The notes under the pieces are model-generated. The model had not been told where the DNA came from, made no database searches, and saw nothing but the letters and a program-made list of their open reading frames with translations. DNA of 20,494 nt from Pseudomonadota bacterium (GTDB lineage: Bacteria > UBA10199 > 2-02-FULL-44-16 > JBDRGF01). The stretch is from the NCBI GenBank assembly GCA_043818055.1, contig JBDRGF010000139.1:1-20494 (forward strand), given 5' to 3'. A program made the position numbers and the translations under genes. Positions 7,405 to 18,528 of this stretch are shown piece by piece; position 1 is the first letter of the stretch, and every line of letters starts with the position of its first letter.

Positions 7405-7495
7405 GGAGAGGTGCCGGAGTGGTTGAACGGGGCGGTCTCGAAAACCGTTGTCCACTTTTAGTGGACCCAGGGTTCGAATCCCTGCCTCTCCGCCA
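7405..7495 (+). tRNA. tRNA-Ser (anticodon CGA), intact, CCA encoded
   Basis: Acceptor GGAGAGG/CCTCTCC plus GCCA; anticodon loop CT-CGA-AA; long variable arm GTCCACT-TTT-AGTGGAC; T arm CAGGG-TTCGAAT-CCCTG. Confidence 0.97.
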
Positions 7496-7550: not shown

Positions 7551-7757
7551 AATCATCCTTCGAAGAAGGCTGATGTGGAACTGAGCGGCAACATCAACCT
7601 GTTTGTTCCCGGTGACAAGAGGGTCTTAGACGATATGCAAACAGTAGATGGTATTAAAATTGTCAACAACATCCAGCTCTATCTCGATCTTTACAAATAT
7701 CCGGCGCGTGGACGAGAGCAGGCAGAACACTTAAGGGAGCAGGTGATTCAGACATGA
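7551..7757 (+). pseudogene. C-terminal fragment of a type IV toxin-antitoxin AbiEi-like antitoxin/regulator
   Basis: GNINLFVP...IVNNIQLYLDL...RGREQAEHL matches my recollection of the AbiEi_2-type C-terminus. An in-frame stop at 7548-7550 removes the N-terminus. Confidence 0.6.
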
Positions 7758-8929
7758 AGAAAAAAACCGGCAAAAAACCTGTTAAAGCGAGCTCCTCTGC
7801 AGATGGCTTATTTAAGCGGATTGTCACTATTTTAGAACAGGCCAGGGCCAATGTTGTCCGGTCAGTCAACAGCAATATGGTAACGGCCTATTGGCTTATT
7901 GGCCAAGAAATTGTTCAGGAGCTTCAAAAAGGACAGGAACGGGCGGAGTATGGTGAACGGATCATTAGCAATTTATCTGATCGTCTGAATAGACGGTATG
8001 GCAAGGGTTTTTCGACCACCAATCTTTGGTACTTTAGACAATTTTACATAACCTTCAAGAATCGAAAGCCTGAAATTCTCCACCCAGTGGGTGGAGAATC
8101 TGAAACCCATAAAAAACTCCGCCCAATGGGTGGAGTTTCGCTTACAGGATTTCACCCTAACCTTTCTTGGACGCACTATCGTGCGCTGATGCGTGTTGAA
8201 AATACATCCGCCCGAAATTTTTATGAAGAAGAAGCGGTACGCTGTGGTTGGGACAAAAGAACTCTGGAACGACAGATTTCGACTCTTTTTTATGAACGAT
8301 TACTGAAAAGCCAAGACAAAAAGGGAATGCTTAAAGAAGTGGTCTCCAAAAATGACTCCCTCCAACCTATTGATGTACTGAAAAACCCCTATATCCTCGA
8401 ATTTCTCAATCTGCCAAATGATCCGAAACTGCGTGAATCAAAATTAGAGGAAGCCCTCATCGCAAACTTAAGACAGTTCCTTTTGGAATTGGGAAAAGGT
8501 TTTTCGTTTGTTGCCCGACAAAAACATATCCGCATTGGCAGCAAAGATTTTTTCGTGGACTTGGTTTTCTACAATTATCTCCTCAAATGCTTTGTGCTGA
8601 TTGATCTTAAGGTTGGCGATCTGACTCATCAAGACATTGGACAAATGGACGGTTACGTTCGGCTCTTCGAGGAGCAATGCAAAACTCCCGAAGACAATCC
8701 AACTATCGGGCTTATTCTCTGTTCCGACAAAGACGATGCGATTGCGCATTATTCTGTTTTAAAGGAAAGCCGGAAGTTATTTGCCTCACGATATAAACTG
8801 GTTTTACCCGATGAGGAAGAGTTGCGCAAAGAGATCGAAAGAGAACGCCGGCTCATTGAGAACGCCTTTGAGCCTGTTACGAAAAAATCTCTTTCTTCGG
8901 GCAAAGTTGGGAGAAAAAAGAAAAAGTAA
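7754..8929 (+). CDS. DUF1016/YhcG family PD-(D/E)XK nuclease-domain protein
   Basis: YWLIGQEIV, RAEYG, GKGFS..NL, LSWTHY, KNPYILEFL, FLLELGKGFSFVARQ, VDLVFYN, LIDLK, GQMDGYV, PTIGLILC. Confidence 0.93.
   Translation: MKKKTGKKPVKASSSADGLFKRIVTILEQARANVVRSVNSNMVTAYWLIGQEIVQELQKGQERAEYGERIISNLSDRLNRRYGKGFSTTNLWYFRQFYITFKNRKPEILHPVGGESETHKKLRPMGGVSLTGFHPNLSWTHYRALMRVENTSARNFYEEEAVRCGWDKRTLERQISTLFYERLLKSQDKKGMLKEVVSKNDSLQPIDVLKNPYILEFLNLPNDPKLRESKLEEALIANLRQFLLELGKGFSFVARQKHIRIGSKDFFVDLVFYNYLLKCFVLIDLKVGDLTHQDIGQMDGYVRLFEEQCKTPEDNPTIGLILCSDKDDAIAHYSVLKESRKLFASRYKLVLPDEEELRKEIERERRLIENAFEPVTKKSLSSGKVGRKKKK
8075..8138. repeat. Two in-frame 25-bp palindromes (39-bp period) inside the DUF1016 gene
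   Basis: ATTCTCCACCCA-G-TGGGTGGAGAAT (8075-8099, perfect arms) and AAACTCCGCCCA-A-TGGGTGGAGTTT (8114-8138, 11/12). Confidence 0.9.
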
Positions 8930-9028: not shown

Positions 9029-9088
9029 CTCTACGGCTTGACCAAAGAAGAAATTGAAATTGTGGAAGGGAGGACTCAAGGTGACTGA
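9029..9088 (+). pseudogene. Extreme C-terminal remnant of a type IIG (Eco57I/TaqI-like) restriction-modification enzyme
   Basis: Translates LYGLTKEEIEIVEGRTQGD*, the typical LYGLTxEEIxIVEG terminus. Confidence 0.7.
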
Positions 9089-9971
9089 CAGACTTAATCC
9101 ACATTCCAGACCACATTTCTTCAAGTACGTTACTTATGATGGCGCCATCAACATCTTGCGGAATATTGCTATCAAGTGGAGTTCTCCTCTCACTTTCAAT
9201 GATCCCTTTGATATTCTCGTCAGGCCAAATATCGGATTCACTGAAGAGGAATTTAAAAAGCATTCCGAACAACGAATCTTAGACGAAATTAATTCAGAAA
9301 ATACGCCTACCCACAACGAAGAACTTATTACAAAAATAAGATCGGCTTCTTCACATTTTACCGAAGGAGATTTGAAAAGCATGTTAAAGCCACGAATTGA
9401 CACACTAACAGAACAGGCGTTTTTGATATTTGCAGAATATCAGAAACAATGGCTTGAATTTGCTAAAAACATTCGCGTTCTTTGTCTTTCCGAAGTTCAT
9501 GACAACTTGCTTATGTGGGCACATTATGCCAAAAATCATACAGGGGCGGTCATACAACTCAAATGCTTGCCGGACTCAGATACTGCTCCAACCAGCAGGG
9601 CTATTAGGGTCGAATATCAGGACGCATTTCCTTCCGTAGCCACGCCAGAGGAATGGACCAACGAAATATTGAATATTAAAACGCTCAATCGCAATGAGGT
9701 TTTCTTAAGATTCATGGCTACAAAAAGCACGCATTGGGCGTATGAGAAAGAATGGCGCTGCCTCGATCAAAAGAGACCAACCGACAATGGCGATCATGAA
9801 ATTTGTGCAATACATCCCGAGGAAATCGAAGCTGTTTACCTTGGTTGTCGAATGCCAGAAGAAAGTAAGCAAGTCATTAGGGGTTTGTTGCAAGGCAAAC
9901 TGAGTCACGTCAAAATTTATGAGGCGAAACAGCATTCAGAACGTTATCAATTAGTATTTGACCCGTTGTAG
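9081..9971 (+). CDS. DUF2971 domain-containing protein
   Basis: FFKY, SSPLTFNDPFD, CLSE..DNLLMWAHYA.NHTG, KS..WAYEKEWR. GTG at 9081 preferred because GGAGG lies at 9069-9073. Confidence 0.85.
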   Translation: MTDRLNPHSRPHFFKYVTYDGAINILRNIAIKWSSPLTFNDPFDILVRPNIGFTEEEFKKHSEQRILDEINSENTPTHNEELITKIRSASSHFTEGDLKSMLKPRIDTLTEQAFLIFAEYQKQWLEFAKNIRVLCLSEVHDNLLMWAHYAKNHTGAVIQLKCLPDSDTAPTSRAIRVEYQDAFPSVATPEEWTNEILNIKTLNRNEVFLRFMATKSTHWAYEKEWRCLDQKRPTDNGDHEICAIHPEEIEAVYLGCRMPEESKQVIRGLLQGKLSHVKIYEAKQHSERYQLVFDPL

Positions 9972-10023: not shown

Positions 10024-10734
10024 ATGGGAGACATAATAAATACAAATACTTTTGAAATCAGATATAAGCCAAACCCAAAAGCACTCGATTATCGGGGCGC
10101 ATGGGCTGAAGTAATATCTGAGCACCTCCAGTTACCACGCTGGCGAATATTGGAAAATCGGTTGGATGTTTATAATGAACAGACGGGTGAGCGAGCTTTT
10201 GTTGGTTTTAGAAACGCAGGCTACGTCGTTCACAATTCTCAAACCGACAATTATTTCGCAGATAAAATCATCAAATTTGTGAAATTTCTAGTGACACTAA
10301 ATGGTTTTGAAAAAGAGCCTTTTATAGAGAGAATAGGCGTCCGTTCTATATATTGTAAAAAGTACAAGGAGTCTTTTGAAAAACTCAAAAACCTGTATCT
10401 TGAACGTTACATGAATTTAACTGATGCTGCCAAAAAACTATTGGATGCGACCATTTTGGACATAGGTGGTCATGTGAACTTTGCCGACAAGCATGGCAAT
10501 TTCAACACAATGAGTGGGCCTATGGAGCAAAAGCAAATGAACCAGTTTTTTGATCAAGAATATATAGGCGATTTGCCCGATATTGGATTGTTTTTTGATA
10601 TTGACTATTGGCTCACTCCAAAAAAACAAATGGGGCCCGGCGATATATCAAGTCATATCAATGATTTTTCGGAGGCTGCTAGAGAACGATTCGAGCAGAT
10701 GGCTTCTCATATTATGGAAGTTAAAAATGGCTAA
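10024..10734 (+). CDS. Hypothetical protein, TIGR04255-like
   Basis: SD AGGAGG before ATG 10024; FEIRY, IERIGVRSI and LFFDIDY resemble TIGR04255 family motifs. Confidence 0.55.
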   Translation: MGDIINTNTFEIRYKPNPKALDYRGAWAEVISEHLQLPRWRILENRLDVYNEQTGERAFVGFRNAGYVVHNSQTDNYFADKIIKFVKFLVTLNGFEKEPFIERIGVRSIYCKKYKESFEKLKNLYLERYMNLTDAAKKLLDATILDIGGHVNFADKHGNFNTMSGPMEQKQMNQFFDQEYIGDLPDIGLFFDIDYWLTPKKQMGPGDISSHINDFSEAARERFEQMASHIMEVKNG

Positions 10735-11179
10735 AAAAAGGAAGAAACAAAAAAACGTAGTACCAATAAAGAGTGCTTTTCGCGAGGAAACAAGTAGTAA
10801 CCCCGCTGTTCATCCTAATGCAACCCTTGCTCCGGGTGATGCTCTTCATTCCACCGCAGATAATAGCTGGCTTTCAACTGATTCAACTAACGCACCTATA
10901 CTCGGTGAGGAAGATCAAAATGAAAACACCTATGTTGAAAGCTATGCTGGACTTTTGGATAAACATATCTTGAGCAAGGGTGAATCGGTTTTATTTTTTA
11001 TTGCGATTGCCGTTATCGGGTATGTCTTTATCCAGGATAATGGTGCCGGTGCATTAAAAGATTGGAGTGGGCTTTTCTGGACTCTCAAAAAAGTGGGCGT
11101 AATTTTTGCCTGTTTTGTTGGGGCTCAGATTTTACAGAAGATTTATAAGTCCTGCGTTTCAAAGTGGAAAGCAAAATAG
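10727..11179 (+). CDS. Hypothetical protein with disordered N-terminus and two C-terminal TM helices
   Basis: ATG 10727 overlaps the upstream stop; hydrophobic segments VLFFIAIAVIGYVFI and VGVIFACFVGAQIL. Confidence 0.7.
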   Translation: MAKKRKKQKNVVPIKSAFREETSSNPAVHPNATLAPGDALHSTADNSWLSTDSTNAPILGEEDQNENTYVESYAGLLDKHILSKGESVLFFIAIAVIGYVFIQDNGAGALKDWSGLFWTLKKVGVIFACFVGAQILQKIYKSCVSKWKAK

Positions 11180-11204
11180 AGACAGTAACGTTATAAACCA
11201 AGGC

Positions 11205-11229
11205 AACTTCCGAGGATACCTCGGTAGTT
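11205..11229. repeat. Solo RhuM-type 25-bp palindrome
   Basis: AACTTCCGAG-GATAC-CTCGGTAGTT (arms 9/10); translates as ATSEDTSVVRK from 11203. Confidence 0.65.
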
Positions 11230-11297
11230 CGTAAGAGCTGGCTGGAAAAAATTAACCCCTGAGAATTGCACAGCTTATTCAAAACTTAGGAATAAAT

Positions 11298-11675
11298 ATG
11301 CTCCTCCACCTTCAATGCACAAAAAAGGTTCTTAAAATCGTCGGTGAGACCAAGGATGGGCCAGTCCCACTCAAGCCAACATTGCTTTCATGGCATGTAA
11401 ACGAGTTTCGAGTTGCCAGGCGAAAATTGTTGCTCTTTACCCATGACCTAACTTTTTATTCCGTATTCTGGTATCCCGCAACCAAACCGCATATCATGAA
11501 CATGAAAAATGTGTTGGCTTCCGAGCTTATGGATTCACTGATGGCCGCTGGTTTCACAGCAGATCAGGTCGAAGAATATTTCACTGGTTTTGACCATGCC
11601 ATTTTCACTCCAACCAGTTCACGGCAGGTTTTGGGTGTAAGGAGCTCCTCTATTTTCCATCTTCTATTCTCCTAA
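11298..11675 (+). pseudogene. DUF6933-like protein, probably truncated at about 11640
   Basis: LQCTKKVL, WHVN.F.V.RRKLLLFTHD.T.Y, TSSRQVLG, after which the frame runs into a low-complexity repeat arm. Confidence 0.6.
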
Positions 11676-11746
11676 TTTCTGAAGTTTCATGCCGTATTAT
11701 GGGCAAAAAGTCGGGAAAATAGAAAATGGAGAATTGAAAATAGAGG
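11647..11746. repeat. Inverted heptamer-repeat element (CTATTTT / AAAATAG units)
   Basis: Left arm CCT-CTATTTT-CCATCTT-CTATTCT; right arm AAAATAG-AAAATGG-AGAATTG-AAAATAG-AGG; outer 11 bp perfectly complementary. Confidence 0.8.
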
Positions 11747-11844
11747 CAAAGAAAATTTGTTAAGCTGCGAGTTTGGGAATGAAAATGAGGCCTTGTGTTT
11801 CCAAAATCTTGGTTCTATACACAGCGTCCACGATGGCCTGCTAA

Positions 11845-12041
11845 AAGAGAAAATATTGGTACGTGACGAGGAAAGATGGGGGAAAAATAACTTTGCCTGT
11901 GTTCAATGTGGTATGCGCCCACCTAGTGTTGAATTACATATAGACCACATAAAGCCTTGGAGCAAAGGTGGAAAAACAGAAATGAAAAATCTACAAACGC
12001 TTTGCTCAAAATGCAATATTGGCAAAAGTGATTTAGAATAG
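11845..12041 (+). pseudogene. HNH endonuclease domain, probably a 5'-truncated fragment (start approximate)
   Basis: CVQCG...LHIDHIKPWSKGG.T...NLQTLCSKCN.GKS; no convincing start codon or RBS. Confidence 0.75.
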
Positions 12042-12050
12042 CTGTTAAAA

Positions 12051-12104
12051 TTAGAGAGAAAATCAGTTGTCGAGAAATTCTCGGTAACTGCCAGCAACGC
12101 CAAA
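12051..12104 (+). repeat. Solo RhuM-type palindrome with flanking RhuM-like codons
   Basis: AGTTGTCGAG-AAATT-CTCGGTAACT (12065-12089, arms 8/10); translates LERKSVVEKFSVTASNAK. Confidence 0.7.
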
Positions 12105-12220
12105 CAATTTGGAAAGCTGCATAAACCCATTTTCTGTTGCTTTTTAGAACGTTAGAGCTAACAACATCGTAGATTATTATTTGCCGTGGTTAATGAACGA
12201 CAAAATTGAGGCACAAAATT

Positions 12221-13240
12221 ATGAAAAAGTTACCTGACAATCAAATTGCTTTTTATCAATCACCCGATGGTTCGGTGAATATTGAGGTTTTGTTTGCCGA
12301 GGAAAATATCTGGCTTTCTCAAAAAAAAATGGCGGAACTTTTTGACACAACACCTCAAAACATAACCCAGCATCTCAAAAATATCTATACAAATAGCGAG
12401 GTTAATCAAATGTCAACTTGTAAGGAATTCTTACAAGTTCAAACAGAAGGGGAAAGAGAAGTCAAAAGAAACACGTCTCTTTATTCGTTGGAGGCCATTA
12501 TTGCTGTTGGCTATAGGGTCAACTCCGAGAGAGGCGCTCAATTTCGGCAATGGGCAACGGAAATTCTTAAAAATTATATCCATAAAGGCTATGCGTTGGA
12601 CATCAACAGATTCAAATACGGTTCACGCTTCAGCGCCAGGTATTTTGACGAACTTTACGAAGAGATCAAAGACATCCGCTCCAGCGAGCGTATGCTCTAT
12701 CAAAAAATCACCGATATTTATGCCACAGCCATAGACTATTCACCCAAGACGTACGAGAGTAAACAATTTTTTGCGACAGTTCAAAACAAACTTCATTTTG
12801 CCATTACTGGGAAAACAGCTGCGGAAATTATTCAAGAACGCGTGAGTAGTAAAAAAGATAAAATGGGACTCACATCATGGAGAAGATCGCCGAACGGTAA
12901 AATTATGCCCAGTGATGTAGTTATTGCCAAGAACTATTTGGATAAAAATGAACTTACTGAACTCAATAGAATCGTGAACATGTATTTGGATTATGCCGAA
13001 ATGCAAGCTGCTCGCGGCAGGATAATGGCCATGAAAGACTGGATAGAAAAACTCAATGCCTTTTTGAAATTTAGTGAACACGATATTTTGACAAATGCAG
13101 GCAAGATCAATCATGAAGTAGCAGAAACACTTGCATTAGGAGAATATGGAAAATATCGGGTAATACAGGACAAAAACTATGTTTCCGACTTTGACCGCGA
13201 GGTGAAAAAATTATTTACATCTGCAAAGAAAAAAGAATGA
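12221..13240 (+). CDS. Virulence RhuM family protein (putative DNA-binding)
   Basis: IWLSQKKMAELF, NITQHLKNIY, YSLEAIIAVGYRVNS, QFRQWAT, DIRSSER, FFATVQNKLHFA, MGLTSW, AKNYL. Contains the in-frame palindrome at 12415-12439. Confidence 0.93.
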   Translation: MKKLPDNQIAFYQSPDGSVNIEVLFAEENIWLSQKKMAELFDTTPQNITQHLKNIYTNSEVNQMSTCKEFLQVQTEGEREVKRNTSLYSLEAIIAVGYRVNSERGAQFRQWATEILKNYIHKGYALDINRFKYGSRFSARYFDELYEEIKDIRSSERMLYQKITDIYATAIDYSPKTYESKQFFATVQNKLHFAITGKTAAEIIQERVSSKKDKMGLTSWRRSPNGKIMPSDVVIAKNYLDKNELTELNRIVNMYLDYAEMQAARGRIMAMKDWIEKLNAFLKFSEHDILTNAGKINHEVAETLALGEYGKYRVIQDKNYVSDFDREVKKLFTSAKKKE

Positions 13241-16383: not shown

Positions 16384-17448
16384 TTATCTTCTCTTCCTTA
16401 AATATCTTCCAATCCTCTCCAGCCCCTCTTTGATTTTTTCCAGATCTAGCGCGTAGGAGAAACGAACCCTGTCCGGGGCACCGAACCATTCGCCGGGATA
16501 TGTTATCACCTTATGTTTGTGAAACATATCAAACACGAACTTGTTCGCATCCTTGATCTTAGGCAGAACATAAAAAGCTCCCTCTGGCTTCCAAAGATCG
16601 AGGCCAAGATCTTTCATCCCATCATAAATAGTATCCCTTCTCTTCCTCCAGATCTTCACCTGATCGGATACGAACTTTCCCGGAGCCTTTAAGGCATGCA
16701 GTGCCACCTGCTGGGAGAGTATGCCGGTGTTCATGGAGGTATGAGTCTTCAGCTCGACAACTTTTTTTACAATTTCAAGATCGCTCGAGAAAAGATAGCC
16801 GACCCTCAGCCCACACATCGCAAAGGTCTTTGAAAATGAGTTCACCGTCACAACTTTATCGCCGGACAAAAAATAATTTTTCCTCTCATAGATCAAGTCC
16901 TTATAAACTTCATCTGAAATCAAAGTGACACCAAGCTTCTGAGTGACCCTTTCAATTTCCTTCAATGCATCGATATCCTGAATCCTTCCCGTAGGATTGC
17001 AGGGCGAATTGATCAGCACAGCCTTCACCCCCCTCACCTTCTTTTTGAAATCCGCCACATCAATTTTACCTTCGTGCGTTTTCACAAATACAGGAACGAG
17101 GTGATTCATCTCTATCAAAGGTTTGTATGAATAATAGTAGGGGGTATGAATAAGGATCTTATCGCCCGGCTTCGCTACGACCCTGAAGGTCAAGTCGAGA
17201 GCCTCAGAGGCGCCGTTAGCAATGACGTAGTGATCCCCCGTAAAGGAGTCGTGATGTTTGGCCAACGCCTCGCGAAGTTTAACCTCTCCTTGTATCAAAC
17301 CATATTTGAATGTCCTCATCGTCGGAAGAGACTCGAACACCTCCTTCGGCGGAGGCAGGTCGGGCTGACCCGAGCCGAATGAGATAACTCCATCACCATC
17401 AACGCCAATAAAAATAGCGGGGGATAATTTATTCTGATTCTTTTTCAT
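16384..17448 (-). CDS. PLP-dependent aminotransferase class I/II
   Basis: GQPD, NGASEAL, INSPCNPTG, SDEVY, NSFSKTFAMCGLRVGY, PEGAFY, RFSY. Confidence 0.93.
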   Translation of the reverse strand: MKKNQNKLSPAIFIGVDGDGVISFGSGQPDLPPPKEVFESLPTMRTFKYGLIQGEVKLREALAKHHDSFTGDHYVIANGASEALDLTFRVVAKPGDKILIHTPYYYSYKPLIEMNHLVPVFVKTHEGKIDVADFKKKVRGVKAVLINSPCNPTGRIQDIDALKEIERVTQKLGVTLISDEVYKDLIYERKNYFLSGDKVVTVNSFSKTFAMCGLRVGYLFSSDLEIVKKVVELKTHTSMNTGILSQQVALHALKAPGKFVSDQVKIWRKRRDTIYDGMKDLGLDLWKPEGAFYVLPKIKDANKFVFDMFHKHKVITYPGEWFGAPDRVRFSYALDLEKIKEGLERIGRYLRKRR

Positions 17449-17489
17449 ATAAAGATGTTTTACCCTAATTTTCCCTAGGCTGCAAAAAC

Positions 17490-17523
17490 AAAAAAGCCCC
17501 TATTATGAAATAGGAGCTTTTTT
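17490..17523 (-). terminator. Rho-independent terminator (possibly bidirectional) after the CsgG-like gene
   Basis: AAAAAAGCCCCTATT-ATGA-AATAGGAGCTTTTTT. Confidence 0.75.
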
Positions 17524-17547
17524 CATCGTCCCTATATGGCTATTTTT

Positions 17548-18528
17548 TTATTGCTGCCTCACTATATCGCCCTTGCTAAAACCTCCACCTGATAATGTCG
17601 TAGCGATCGCAAACTTTGGCGTCACTTTTGTAACCTGCACCTGGCCTGCCAGAGTCTCCTCGACGCCCAAAGAGAGCCCAGTGTCTGGATCTACAAGCTC
17701 CGCACCAGCTTTATAGATGGTATATGTATCTCCAATTTTCACACCTGCGCCAGCCCCCGCATTGATATACACCTGAGATCCACCTTTGATAACCTTTCCC
17801 TCCCATGGAACATTCTCCATGGTATCAACTATCCACTGCACACATTTATCGAGCGCGCCTGAAAATGTTTTAGCAAGCGTTGAACGGAAATTAGCACCAC
17901 CGATGCCTGCCGCTCCACCGCCAAATCCTCCGCCGGCAAGCCCCAAAGATGCTTGAGTTTTGCTGCACTCCTTCGAGCCTTTAATTTCGAGCGTTGTCGT
18001 ATCATACCACCTCACAATTACCCTGACCTTATTCGTGCTAACTCCCAAACCACCCAATCCCAAACCTCCACCTCCGGCAGCTCCACCTATCCCACCAAAG
18101 GATGAGCCCTTTCCTGCGCCGGCGAGCATTCCGACAAATAACGCCTGTGCCGCAGCGGCCTTACCTGTCTGCGCTCCGCTTCCCCTGGATAGGCCTGCCT
18201 GCTTTGCAGCCTGCTCCTTCTCTGCAAAGCGGGAGAGTGTCAGATTGCGAGTGTTCCTGTCCCTCTCTACAACGATAAACTTTCCGGTGTTCACAAGCTT
18301 GTCGACAAGCATGTCGCCAAGGTTGACAGCGACATCAGGCCCCATGCTCACATTCTCCATTTTGAAATCGGCAACGGCGACAACTTTTTTAAGCTCCGTA
18401 AGTCCGGCTTCATCCGCCTTTTTACCTTTAGATGATTTTCCCTTCTTTTTGGCATTTGCATCTATTGAAACAAGAGAGAGACAAAGAATGATCGATAGAG
18501 AAATGACCAACATCTTTTTTAACTTCAT
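17548..18528 (-). CDS. Exported CsgG/HfaB family protein with FlgT-like C-terminal beta domain
   Basis: Signal peptide; VAVADF, LVDKLVNTGKFIVVER, Gly-rich hairpins, PWEGKVI, VYINAG...GVKIGD, LVDPDTG.SLG. ATG 18528 has a GGAGG SD. Confidence 0.8.
   Translation of the reverse strand: MKLKKMLVISLSIILCLSLVSIDANAKKKGKSSKGKKADEAGLTELKKVVAVADFKMENVSMGPDVAVNLGDMLVDKLVNTGKFIVVERDRNTRNLTLSRFAEKEQAAKQAGLSRGSGAQTGKAAAAQALFVGMLAGAGKGSSFGGIGGAAGGGGLGLGGLGVSTNKVRVIVRWYDTTTLEIKGSKECSKTQASLGLAGGGFGGGAAGIGGANFRSTLAKTFSGALDKCVQWIVDTMENVPWEGKVIKGGSQVYINAGAGAGVKIGDTYTIYKAGAELVDPDTGLSLGVEETLAGQVQVTKVTPKFAIATTLSGGGFSKGDIVRQQ

Follow-up and report, generated by a model that had tools for sequence, protein, structure and literature searches.

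A covarying palindrome within rhuM genes is a candidate binding site for the winged-helix domain encoded around it

The RhuM-family gene located in a 20,494-nucleotide stretch of DNA from a Pseudomonadota bacterium contains a perfect 25-bp palindrome within its reading frame, and two diverged palindromes of the same geometry stand alone upstream from it. This arrangement raises the question of whether the palindromes are functional DNA sites and, if so, what reads them. The stretch, hereafter the window, is the whole of contig C139 (GenBank JBDRGF010000139.1) of a 2.93-Mb draft genome (166 contigs, 93.6% complete). A preliminary description of the sequence considered the palindrome to be functional as DNA and proposed that it could be a self-operator, a recombination or cassette boundary analogous to attC, or a donor for segment swapping. 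The rhuM gene (positions 12221..13240, + strand) codes for 339 amino acids from the ATG at 12221, which was taken as the start because homologues start with MKK. Its product matches the RhuM profile PF13310 with 347 bits (cut-off of 33.7), matches the models of the PADLOC candidate defence gene PDC-S05 with an E-value of 1e-141, and is 81–90% identical to 119 homologues among the matches listed.

The in-gene palindrome, designated site A (12415..12439), extends from the third position of codon 65 to the third position of codon 73. It belongs to the TGTAAG class, consists of AACTTGTAAG-GAATT-CTTACAAGTT with pairing at 10 of 10 arm positions, and is translated as STCKEFLQVQ in the frame of the RhuM coding sequence. 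Both solo palindromes belong to the CGAG class. Site B (12065..12089), AGTTGTCGAG-AAATT-CTCGGTAACT, has the AGTT..AACT outer arms of the DGK-wing type and forms 8 Watson-Crick pairs, its arm positions 5 and 6 being occupied by G.T and T.G, respectively. Site C (11205..11229), AACTTCCGAG-GATAC-CTCGGTAGTT, has the AACT..AGTT outer arms of the EGxR-wing type and forms 9 of 10 pairs, the exception being a T.T at arm position 5. Site C begins 25 nt past the stop codon of the open reading frame (ORF) 10583-11179. Site B begins 23 nt past the stop codon of an HNH ORF (11757-12041) and 156 nt upstream from the rhuM ATG, and the two solo sites bracket a DUF6933 gene fragment and the HNH ORF. Comparison of the strings and an independent scan agreed on the positions, the 10-5-10 geometry, the reading frame of site A, and the location of the solo sites about 25 nt after gene stops, all as first described. 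Two further statements of the preliminary description held in part. The AG-N5-CT pattern, thought to be fixed, is common to A, B, and C but does not extend to the family, since arm position 10 is a G-C pair in 89 of 136 distinct sites; the codon phase said to be shared by the three sites is merely notional for B and C because stop codons are close by.

Chance does not account for the three palindromes. Folding as single-stranded DNA gave energies of –8.0, –6.9, and –7.8 kcal/mol for A, B, and C, respectively, corresponding to z-scores of –5.4 for A, –4.8 for C, and –3.5 for B, and none of 200 shuffled sequences was as good on the + strand. Overlapping matches of arms paired at 9 or all 10 positions numbered 24 in the window, versus a mean of 4.7 and a maximum of 11 in 30 Markov simulations. 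Across the whole genome, 10-5-10 palindromes are perfect in 50 cases and have 9 or more of 10 pairs in 262; the corresponding numbers in a Markov simulation of 1.5 Mb were 2 and 52.

To assess conservation of the in-gene site, the DNA sequences of RhuM genes were collected from 80 genomes spanning many phyla, 80 metagenome contigs, and 80 viral contigs. At least 8 of 10 pairs were present at the codons aligned to residues 65–73 in 83 of the 84 sites of a first set. The enlarged set comprised 247 N-termini, three of which could not be aligned without a gap; in 229 of the remaining 244, eight or more arm positions were paired (all ten in 141, nine in 72, and eight in 16), the palindrome starting, as in the resident gene, at position 3 of the codon that aligns with residue 65. 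The 15 exceptions comprised five genes with a decayed 3' arm and ten in which a palindrome with 9 or 10 pairs was found a few bases off, in another codon phase, indicating that the element is not bound to one reading frame. The phase-shifted palindromes (loci L111, L112, L113, L116, L123, L124, L155, L194, L195, and L238), exemplified by GAAAAATCGG-AAATT-CCGATTTTTC, occur beside helices of the KSRSTINEH type.

The arms are highly diverse, with 35 different inner-arm sequences among 124 distinct sites, and the encoded residues co-vary by complementarity (K with L, E with S, R with R, and A with A) rather than by protein chemistry. The covariation test was performed on all 136 distinct 31-mers, none being dropped. 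Paired cells accounted for 90.5% of the total versus 60.6 ± 0.9% in shuffled controls, double-sided changes numbered 498 versus 175 ± 19, and the covariation score was 0.831 versus 0.281 after shuffling and 0.05–0.18 when the partner was slid. Synonymous codon choice also favored pairing (9.20 pairs versus 6.24 upon resampling of 56 unique segments). Together, codon alignment, shuffling, and synonymous resampling strongly support selection of the in-gene palindrome at the DNA level, with arms covarying beyond the amino-acid constraint, as had been proposed. In the class associated with QHGAK wings (GGT.. outer arms; e.g. L170, L132, and L146 in alignment A3), the symmetry extends two bases farther on each side, the sequence GTGGTT...AACCAC forming 12-bp arms.

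The bases of the arms follow residues of the protein located in two predicted elements, a recognition helix (residues 45–57; codons at 12353..12391, + strand) and a wing β-hairpin (residues 67–88; codons at 12419..12484, + strand). These elements were assigned from an AlphaFold model, and their relation to the arm bases from a matrix of mutual information and tables of residues against bases. Base entropy was analyzed for 211 unique sequences, setting aside the residues encoded by the palindrome itself. Residue 50 explained 0.79–0.90 of the base entropy at arm positions 8–10, residue 46 explained 0.58–0.68 at positions 7–9, and residues 45 and 49 explained 0.42–0.82 at positions 4–6. Residues 45 and 49, like residues 46 and 50, are one helical turn apart. 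The wing residues 76, 79, 81, and 83 explained 0.66–0.94 of the base entropy at positions 1–3, and the mutual information between the outer arm and residues 76 and 79 combined amounted to 0.97 of the outer-arm entropy. Other columns of high variability (18, 57, 64, 82, and 86) mostly explained 0.1–0.3, with a maximum of 0.39. In the resident protein, the residues tracking arm positions 4–10 (45, 46, 49, and 50) are P, Q, T, and Q, and the wing type, which tracks outer arm positions 1–3, is EGxRE.

Counted in 163 unique combinations, the mapping of residues to bases is nearly deterministic. Glutamate at position 50 was associated with GG in 55 of 56 cases, arginine with CA in 14 of 14, and leucine, glutamine, methionine, or isoleucine with AG in 70 of 71. 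Lysine was associated with CC, CA, or AC (16/16) and tyrosine with GA or AA (5/5). The mapping survives when the peptide encoded by the palindrome is identical, indicating that the base pair is tracked rather than the amino acid: SVVKDFLTTA is encoded with GTCAAG..CTTGAC arms beside a helix ending in ..SLH and with GTCAAA..TTTGAC arms beside ..SYH, and AVIRKFRITA with ATCCGG beside ..NEH and with ATTCGA beside ..NYH. The helix motif DTTPQNITQ and the TGTAAG arm go together in 16 of 16 cases, and the gene of the window carries both.

Linkage between neighboring nucleotides appears to be ruled out as the sole cause of this association. Inner arm positions 7–10 were explained to 91% by residues 46 and 50, whose codons are about 45 nt away, and to 11% by the adjacent outer arm, and ten inner classes each pair with two to four outer classes. 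Independence was also evaluated on a tree built without the trait columns. GG changed 23 times and glutamate at residue 50 changed 22 times on this tree, the supported pairs being in the same direction by 4.2 to 0. For AG and the L, Q, M, or I group, the supported independent pairs were in the same direction by 5.5 to 0 (p of about 0.03). No association was detected with the controls used in this test (residue 57, residue 64, and inner versus outer arm).

The AlphaFold model of the N-terminal domain comprises three strands, a helix (34–40), a turn, the putative recognition helix (45–57), and the hairpin (67–88, with strands 67–76 and 79–88), the first strand of which is encoded by the palindrome. 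The predicted local distance difference test (pLDDT) score is 70–90 for residues 30–110 and 83–90 for residues 31–70. Residues 1–64 matched no Pfam family at an E-value of up to 10, and a search of NCBIfam found no model. The closest fold was that of DdrC from Deinococcus radiodurans, a dimeric winged helix-turn-helix (wHTH) protein (7qvb_A; Z of 8.2 over 187 residues), which was also the top match in Foldseek (E-value of 4e-4). The N-terminal domain of DdrC (8u1j_A) gave a Z of 6.9 with 96 of 98 residues aligned, and the DNA-binding domain of a plasmid Par protein bound to DNA gave a Z of 5.6. As in the RhuM model, a winged helix at the N-terminus of DdrC precedes a helical domain, and the titles of its entries describe it as a DNA-binding homodimer. 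This likeness is a fold match, the sequence identity being 10–12% and no Pfam or sequence relationship between the two proteins being shown; we know of no cognate palindrome for DdrC.

Two full-length copies of RhuM were predicted to form a symmetric homodimer with a score of 0.73, compared to 0.03 for the best control. Of the 30 proteins solved as pairs of one chain, 20 attained this mark, compared to 1 of the 23 solved as single chains. Contacts agreed to at least 87% between dimer runs, and the pLDDT score of the partner was at least 75. The predicted interface involves residues 109–161, leaving the helix and the wing free.

These comparisons suggest that the in-gene palindrome is probably the binding site of the N-terminal wHTH domain of RhuM itself. 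A symmetric RhuM dimer would bind its own 25-bp palindrome, and binding would be likely to hold RhuM at its own gene or to repress it. The self-operator thus appears to be the best fitting of the three roles initially proposed, the arm bases following residues of both the recognition helix and the wing. The distribution of cognate sites is compatible with such a role. The core of the resident site, GTAAG-N5-CTTAC, is present once in the genome, inside rhuM itself, and a second RhuM, encoded on contig C19, likewise has a single cognate site, in its own gene. At five viral loci in which the in-gene site has decayed (5 or 6 of 10 pairs), an intact palindrome of the same class is present 400–459 nt upstream; in L230, the displaced site is in a 372-nt intergenic region, 237 nt before the ATG. 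The site can therefore leave the coding sequence, yet it stays beside the gene, as fits a cis-acting protein-binding site.

Several observations weigh against this assignment. The support comes from comparative sequence analysis and structure prediction. Taken as a whole, the monomer model is mediocre, with a mean pLDDT of 62 and a predicted template modeling score of 0.36, and there is no solved relative by sequence. On the tree, the supported independent pairs are few (5–7) and the p-values are weak (0.125 for GG and glutamate); since the helix and the site are less than 100 nt apart, co-inheritance adds to the raw association. Finally, no σ70-like promoter was found on the + strand between site B and rhuM, and a position 195 nt inside the gene is an unusual place for a repressor to bind.

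Intragenic palindromic operators do occur in well-known systems. Operators O2 of lac and OI of gal, located in lacZ and galE, respectively, are bound by dimeric or tetrameric helix-turn-helix regulators. The RhuM site resembles them as a palindrome within a coding sequence for which protein binding is predicted. In contrast, lac O2 and gal OI are located in a target gene rather than in the DNA-binding domain of the regulator, and they are not known to form dozens of classes diversifying with their reader.

The literature that we searched contained no description of a RhuM palindrome; where RhuM is named in a paper on inversions (PMC9881135) and in a Wolbachia preprint, it appears merely as a neighbor or an annotation. 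A defensive role has been reported for the family. One PDC-S05 gene, coding for a RhuM domain, reduced plating of phages T7 and T5 about 1000-fold in E. coli B, and the same representative is reported as active against T4 (10.1101/2024.09.26.614923). The breadth of this activity suggests that no cognate phage site is needed for it. BstA provides a precedent, as it is described as a single-gene defence system switched off by a cognate DNA element, aba, that overlaps its own gene and confers self-immunity on the carrier (PMC8585504). Broad activity of PDC-S05 and the BstA precedent together led us to read the palindrome as a putative self site: when bound, it would mark the DNA that carries it as self.

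Both systems combine an N-terminal DNA-binding domain, predicted in the case of RhuM, with a short DNA element overlapping the gene, at codons 65–73 in rhuM. According to the same source, aba acts as DNA, also in trans, and occurs in cognate pairs with BstA (PMC8585504). The differences are that aba spans 63 bp (29 bp upstream from the gene and its first 34 bp) and is described there with terminal direct CCCGCC repeats and no palindrome, whereas the RhuM site is a 25-bp inverted repeat, and that the domain of BstA is KilA-N-like (PMC8585504), unlike residues 1–64 of RhuM, which have no Pfam counterpart. Furthermore, the RhuM site lies inside the coding sequence of the putative DNA-binding domain itself, and its residue-to-base code is readable; its function is putative.

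Palindromes of the same classes are widespread in viral sequences. Exact CGAG-class 25-mers were found at no fewer than 120 viral loci. Among the matches listed, 80 such loci had flanks: about 18 sites were in RhuM-type genes, and the orphans represented 56 distinct contexts. Orphans also accounted for 66 of the 69 distinct viral contexts of the TGTAAG class. Five orphan-bearing viral records, three of which are rated complete, contained one copy each, no match to a reversed control pattern, and no RhuM N-terminal domain at an E-value of up to 1. By our own estimate, which was made for a viral collection whose size is not given, the 25-mer pattern (19 fixed and 4 two-fold positions) would have far less than one chance match. 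At viral loci L289 to L368, 34 CGAG-class orphans are in open frames of 150 codons or more; 25 of these have the RhuM codon phase, eight are in a second phase, and one is in the phase that would read TAG. We have no explanation for this excess of the RhuM phase.

A tentative model, which we regard as rather unlikely to hold in full, is that each RhuM allele reads one 25-bp palindromic password by means of its helix-and-wing code, that this password is written into the rhuM gene as a self mark, and that phages and islands take up bare passwords as decoys, driving the diversification into dozens of classes. Phage and island orphans would be copies of the self mark, and B and C would be passwords of the CGAG type. 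Binding may instead serve autoregulation alone, or a phage site may be recognized as a target. If RhuM does bind its own palindrome, the family offers a natural library of matched reader-site pairs with at least 35 inner-arm classes, and the near one-to-one code allows a direct test of the recognition rules of winged helices. Confirmation would also provide a mechanism of action for PDC-S05, a defence candidate with a very wide distribution. The numerous viral orphans would then be counter-defences or self marks of a new type, consisting of DNA alone, for which BstA and aba are so far the sole comparable case.

Sites B and C were compared to the in-gene sites of other rhuM genes. Site C is identical at 23 of 25 nt to the sites of L054 and L052, and its flanks do not rise above background (up to 11 and up to 10 matches of 20, equal to the maxima over 243 genes). 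Site B is identical at 21 of 25 nt to the site of L094; its flanks match at 13 and at 12–14 of 20 nt on the two sides, versus background means of 9.5 and 7.2, and are at background farther out. The solo sites are islands of homology of 30–60 nt, and their notional peptides resemble natural RhuM variants, ATSEDFSVVQ of L054 and L052 for C and SVTEDFSVTA of L094 for B, as the preliminary description had stated. In genes, the CGAG class is associated with helices of the CSxDN[IV]SLH type. The resident gene, of the TGTAAG class, has TTPQNITQH, and its product is not expected to read B and C, which would be non-cognate. Non-cognate solo sites located 270–350 nt upstream from an in-gene site recur in the window, in L021, in L041 and L057, in L238, and in L240/241; the solo sites of other loci are, for the most part, likewise non-cognate. 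The sequence comparisons indicate that B and C are most likely orphan sites left from, or copied from, other rhuM alleles at the island.

The main competing explanation is that two older rhuM alleles were overwritten at the island and left B and C behind as inert remnants, in which case the in-gene site may still be an operator. We consider this quite conceivable, its chances being somewhat short of even. Graded RhuM pseudogene fragments containing a palindrome are present at other loci (L021, L038, L014, and L057), and the loop of C, GATAC, departs from in-gene loops. Two further observations speak for leftovers and against a continuing role of the solo sites: the weak RhuM homology retained for about 20 nt on either side of B is what a plain relic would display, and no helix motif of the CGAG type, that is, no cognate reader gene, was found in the assembled genome (93.6% complete). 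A protein-level search for RhuM remnants in the window gave little, with the B fragment as the best non-self match at an E-value of 0.62 and –0.9 bits for C. The preliminary description would have been undermined if the solo sites were always parts of longer, uniformly decayed pseudogenes. This is not the case for C, since uniform decay would not have left 23 of 25 nt identical between flanks at background, and it applies weakly to B. Moreover, B and C are mismatched only where live genes of the CGAG class are also unpaired: 15 of the 16 mismatches found in 16 distinct live sites are at positions 5–6, the GT/GT asymmetry of the arms of B is present in the live gene L059, and the TC/GT combination of C is present in live genes. 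Every strongly constrained arm position (1–4 and 7–10) is kept in both. Neither chance nor precise deletion can explain palindrome-only CGAG-class orphans in 56 distinct viral contexts. These numerous phage orphans suggest that B and C may still act, for instance as decoys against RhuM of the CGAG type.

The palindrome could alternatively be a hairpin in the mRNA, or a hairpin or cruciform in the DNA, that controls translation, RNA stability, or replication without being read by RhuM. All ten arm pairs covary, many different arm sequences are tolerated, and the predicted hairpins are stable (–7 to –8 kcal/mol; z of –3.5 to –5.4), as this explanation requires. A hairpin formed by the sense-strand RNA would favor G.U pairs, but transition mismatches display no strand bias (21 G.T and T.G versus 24 A.C and C.A; p = 0.77). 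The mismatches are concentrated at mid-arm positions 4–6, the worst for a hairpin, with hardly any at positions 1–3 or 7–10. The center of the palindrome is fully symmetric, with one unpaired base, in 31 of 56 orphans free of coding constraint, compared to 3 of 12 sites in genes, a feature more in keeping with dimer binding to a duplex than with the loop of a hairpin. No Rfam family matched the palindrome, and structure by itself offers no reason for the arm bases to follow helix residues 45, 46, 49, and 50. We therefore consider the hairpin improbable and retain binding of a RhuM dimer to the duplex as the preferred reading.

Even less probable, in our assessment, is a recombination or attachment site of the attC, dif, or core type, in which the solo sites would mark cassette boundaries left by site-specific insertion. 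The position of B and C just after gene stops, on both sides of a foreign two-gene fragment, fits this model; the recurrence of non-cognate solo sites at a similar distance upstream from in-gene sites and the relics that end at the edge of a palindrome elsewhere (L057_1570, L041_68, and L006_3809) also agree with it. The sites also recall attC, since attC sites are imperfect palindromes located just past cassette genes and vary in sequence while pairing is kept. However, attC sites are longer and are used by the IntI integrase as folded single strands, with a strand bias, whereas the RhuM sites span only 25 bp and have neither an integrase nor a strand bias. When the 19 ORFs of the window were scanned with family profiles, no recombinase was detected. 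Allele breakpoints are elsewhere: among 203 pairs with a strong signal, 149 broke at nt 240–299 of rhuM, where the highly conserved part of the gene starts, and one at nt 210–239, the palindrome occupying nt 195–219. The sites present at one locus differ in sequence and hence have no common core, and upstream homology between the resident rhuM and its closest relatives is lost about 41 nt ahead of the ATG rather than at B. No palindrome of the RhuM type is present within 4 kb of the intact DUF6933 copy on contig C99, and viral orphans are single-copy and show no enrichment toward the ends of contigs (14 of 53 lie no farther than 10% from an end; Kolmogorov-Smirnov p = 0.67). A cassette-boundary role akin to that of attC was accordingly abandoned. 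The proposal of a donor for segment swapping also lacks support because a new specificity would require the helix, encoded about 45 nt upstream, to change as well, and a palindrome on its own cannot bring this about. Other candidates were also set aside: a prophage att site was rejected, an intrinsic terminator was rejected because positions 11000-12600 contain no terminator-like site and no tail formed by a T run, and a genome-wide repeat resembling repetitive extragenic palindromes was rejected because the motif of B and C, CGAG-N5-CTCGGTA, has just these two matches in the 2.93-Mb genome.

The only Rfam match in the window is a tRNA gene (7405-7492). According to family profiles and PADLOC, a series of single-gene defence candidates comes after this gene: a YhcG/DUF1016 gene (7754-8929; PDC-S02), a DUF2971 gene (9054-9971; PDC-S31), two ORFs without a family, and a truncated DUF6933 gene (11298-11675; PDC-S63) that covers positions 1–111 of the 157 positions of the profile. 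The series continues with the HNH ORF, which codes for 94 amino acids, with rhuM, and with a convergent PIF1-WYL helicase gene. Synteny comparison with 40 relatives of the same order or class revealed that they do not share the island. Public sequencing runs, which yielded low-depth contigs of the organism and many foreign RhuM alleles, provided none that was telling across A, B, or C.

A second copy of the DUF6933 gene and of the HNH ORF is present on contig C99 of the genome (G000; 17091-17923; L096), with 83% and 76% DNA identity, respectively. The DUF6933 protein is full-length there (169 amino acids); the copy in the window stops at profile position 111 of 157, at the start of a repeat of about 100 bp (11646-11746) located between the DUF6933 fragment and the HNH ORF. 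This repeat has many matches with 73–86% identity in several related genomes, at seven places in G033, nine in G038, and more in G002, G006, and G016, some of them on both strands. This stretch could represent an RNA gene or a mobile repeat of small size; it has no match in Rfam, and a contig from an RNA library is identical to the window over 11681-11841.

The yhcG gene of the window also contains in-frame 10-5-10 palindromes, both in the linker that follows the DUF1016_N domain. The first (8075-8099), ATTCTCCACC-CAGTG-GGTGGAGAAT, has 10 of 10 pairs, and the second (8114-8138), AAACTCCGCC-CAATG-GGTGGAGTTT, has 9 of 10. The presence in the same window of a second defence candidate, PDC-S02, with the same kind of in-gene palindrome raises the possibility that the principle may be general for island-borne defence genes. 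Genomes of the same class were used for comparison since viral YhcG relatives were limited to two loci. A palindrome with at least 9 of 10 pairs was found in 19 of the 29 YhcG genes of these relatives, with quite different arms, 225–363 nt before the YhcG_C domain. Positions 12058-12082 of the window, comprising the 5' half of B and its loop, match a YhcG gene segment of L095 (contig C23 of G029; GKSVVEKLS) at 24 of 25 nt, but this gene has no matching 3' arm there. We attribute the match to chance or convergence because only RhuM sites match both arms. Several other 10-5-10 palindromes of the genome, for example on contigs C14, C123, and C138, resemble the YhcG type.

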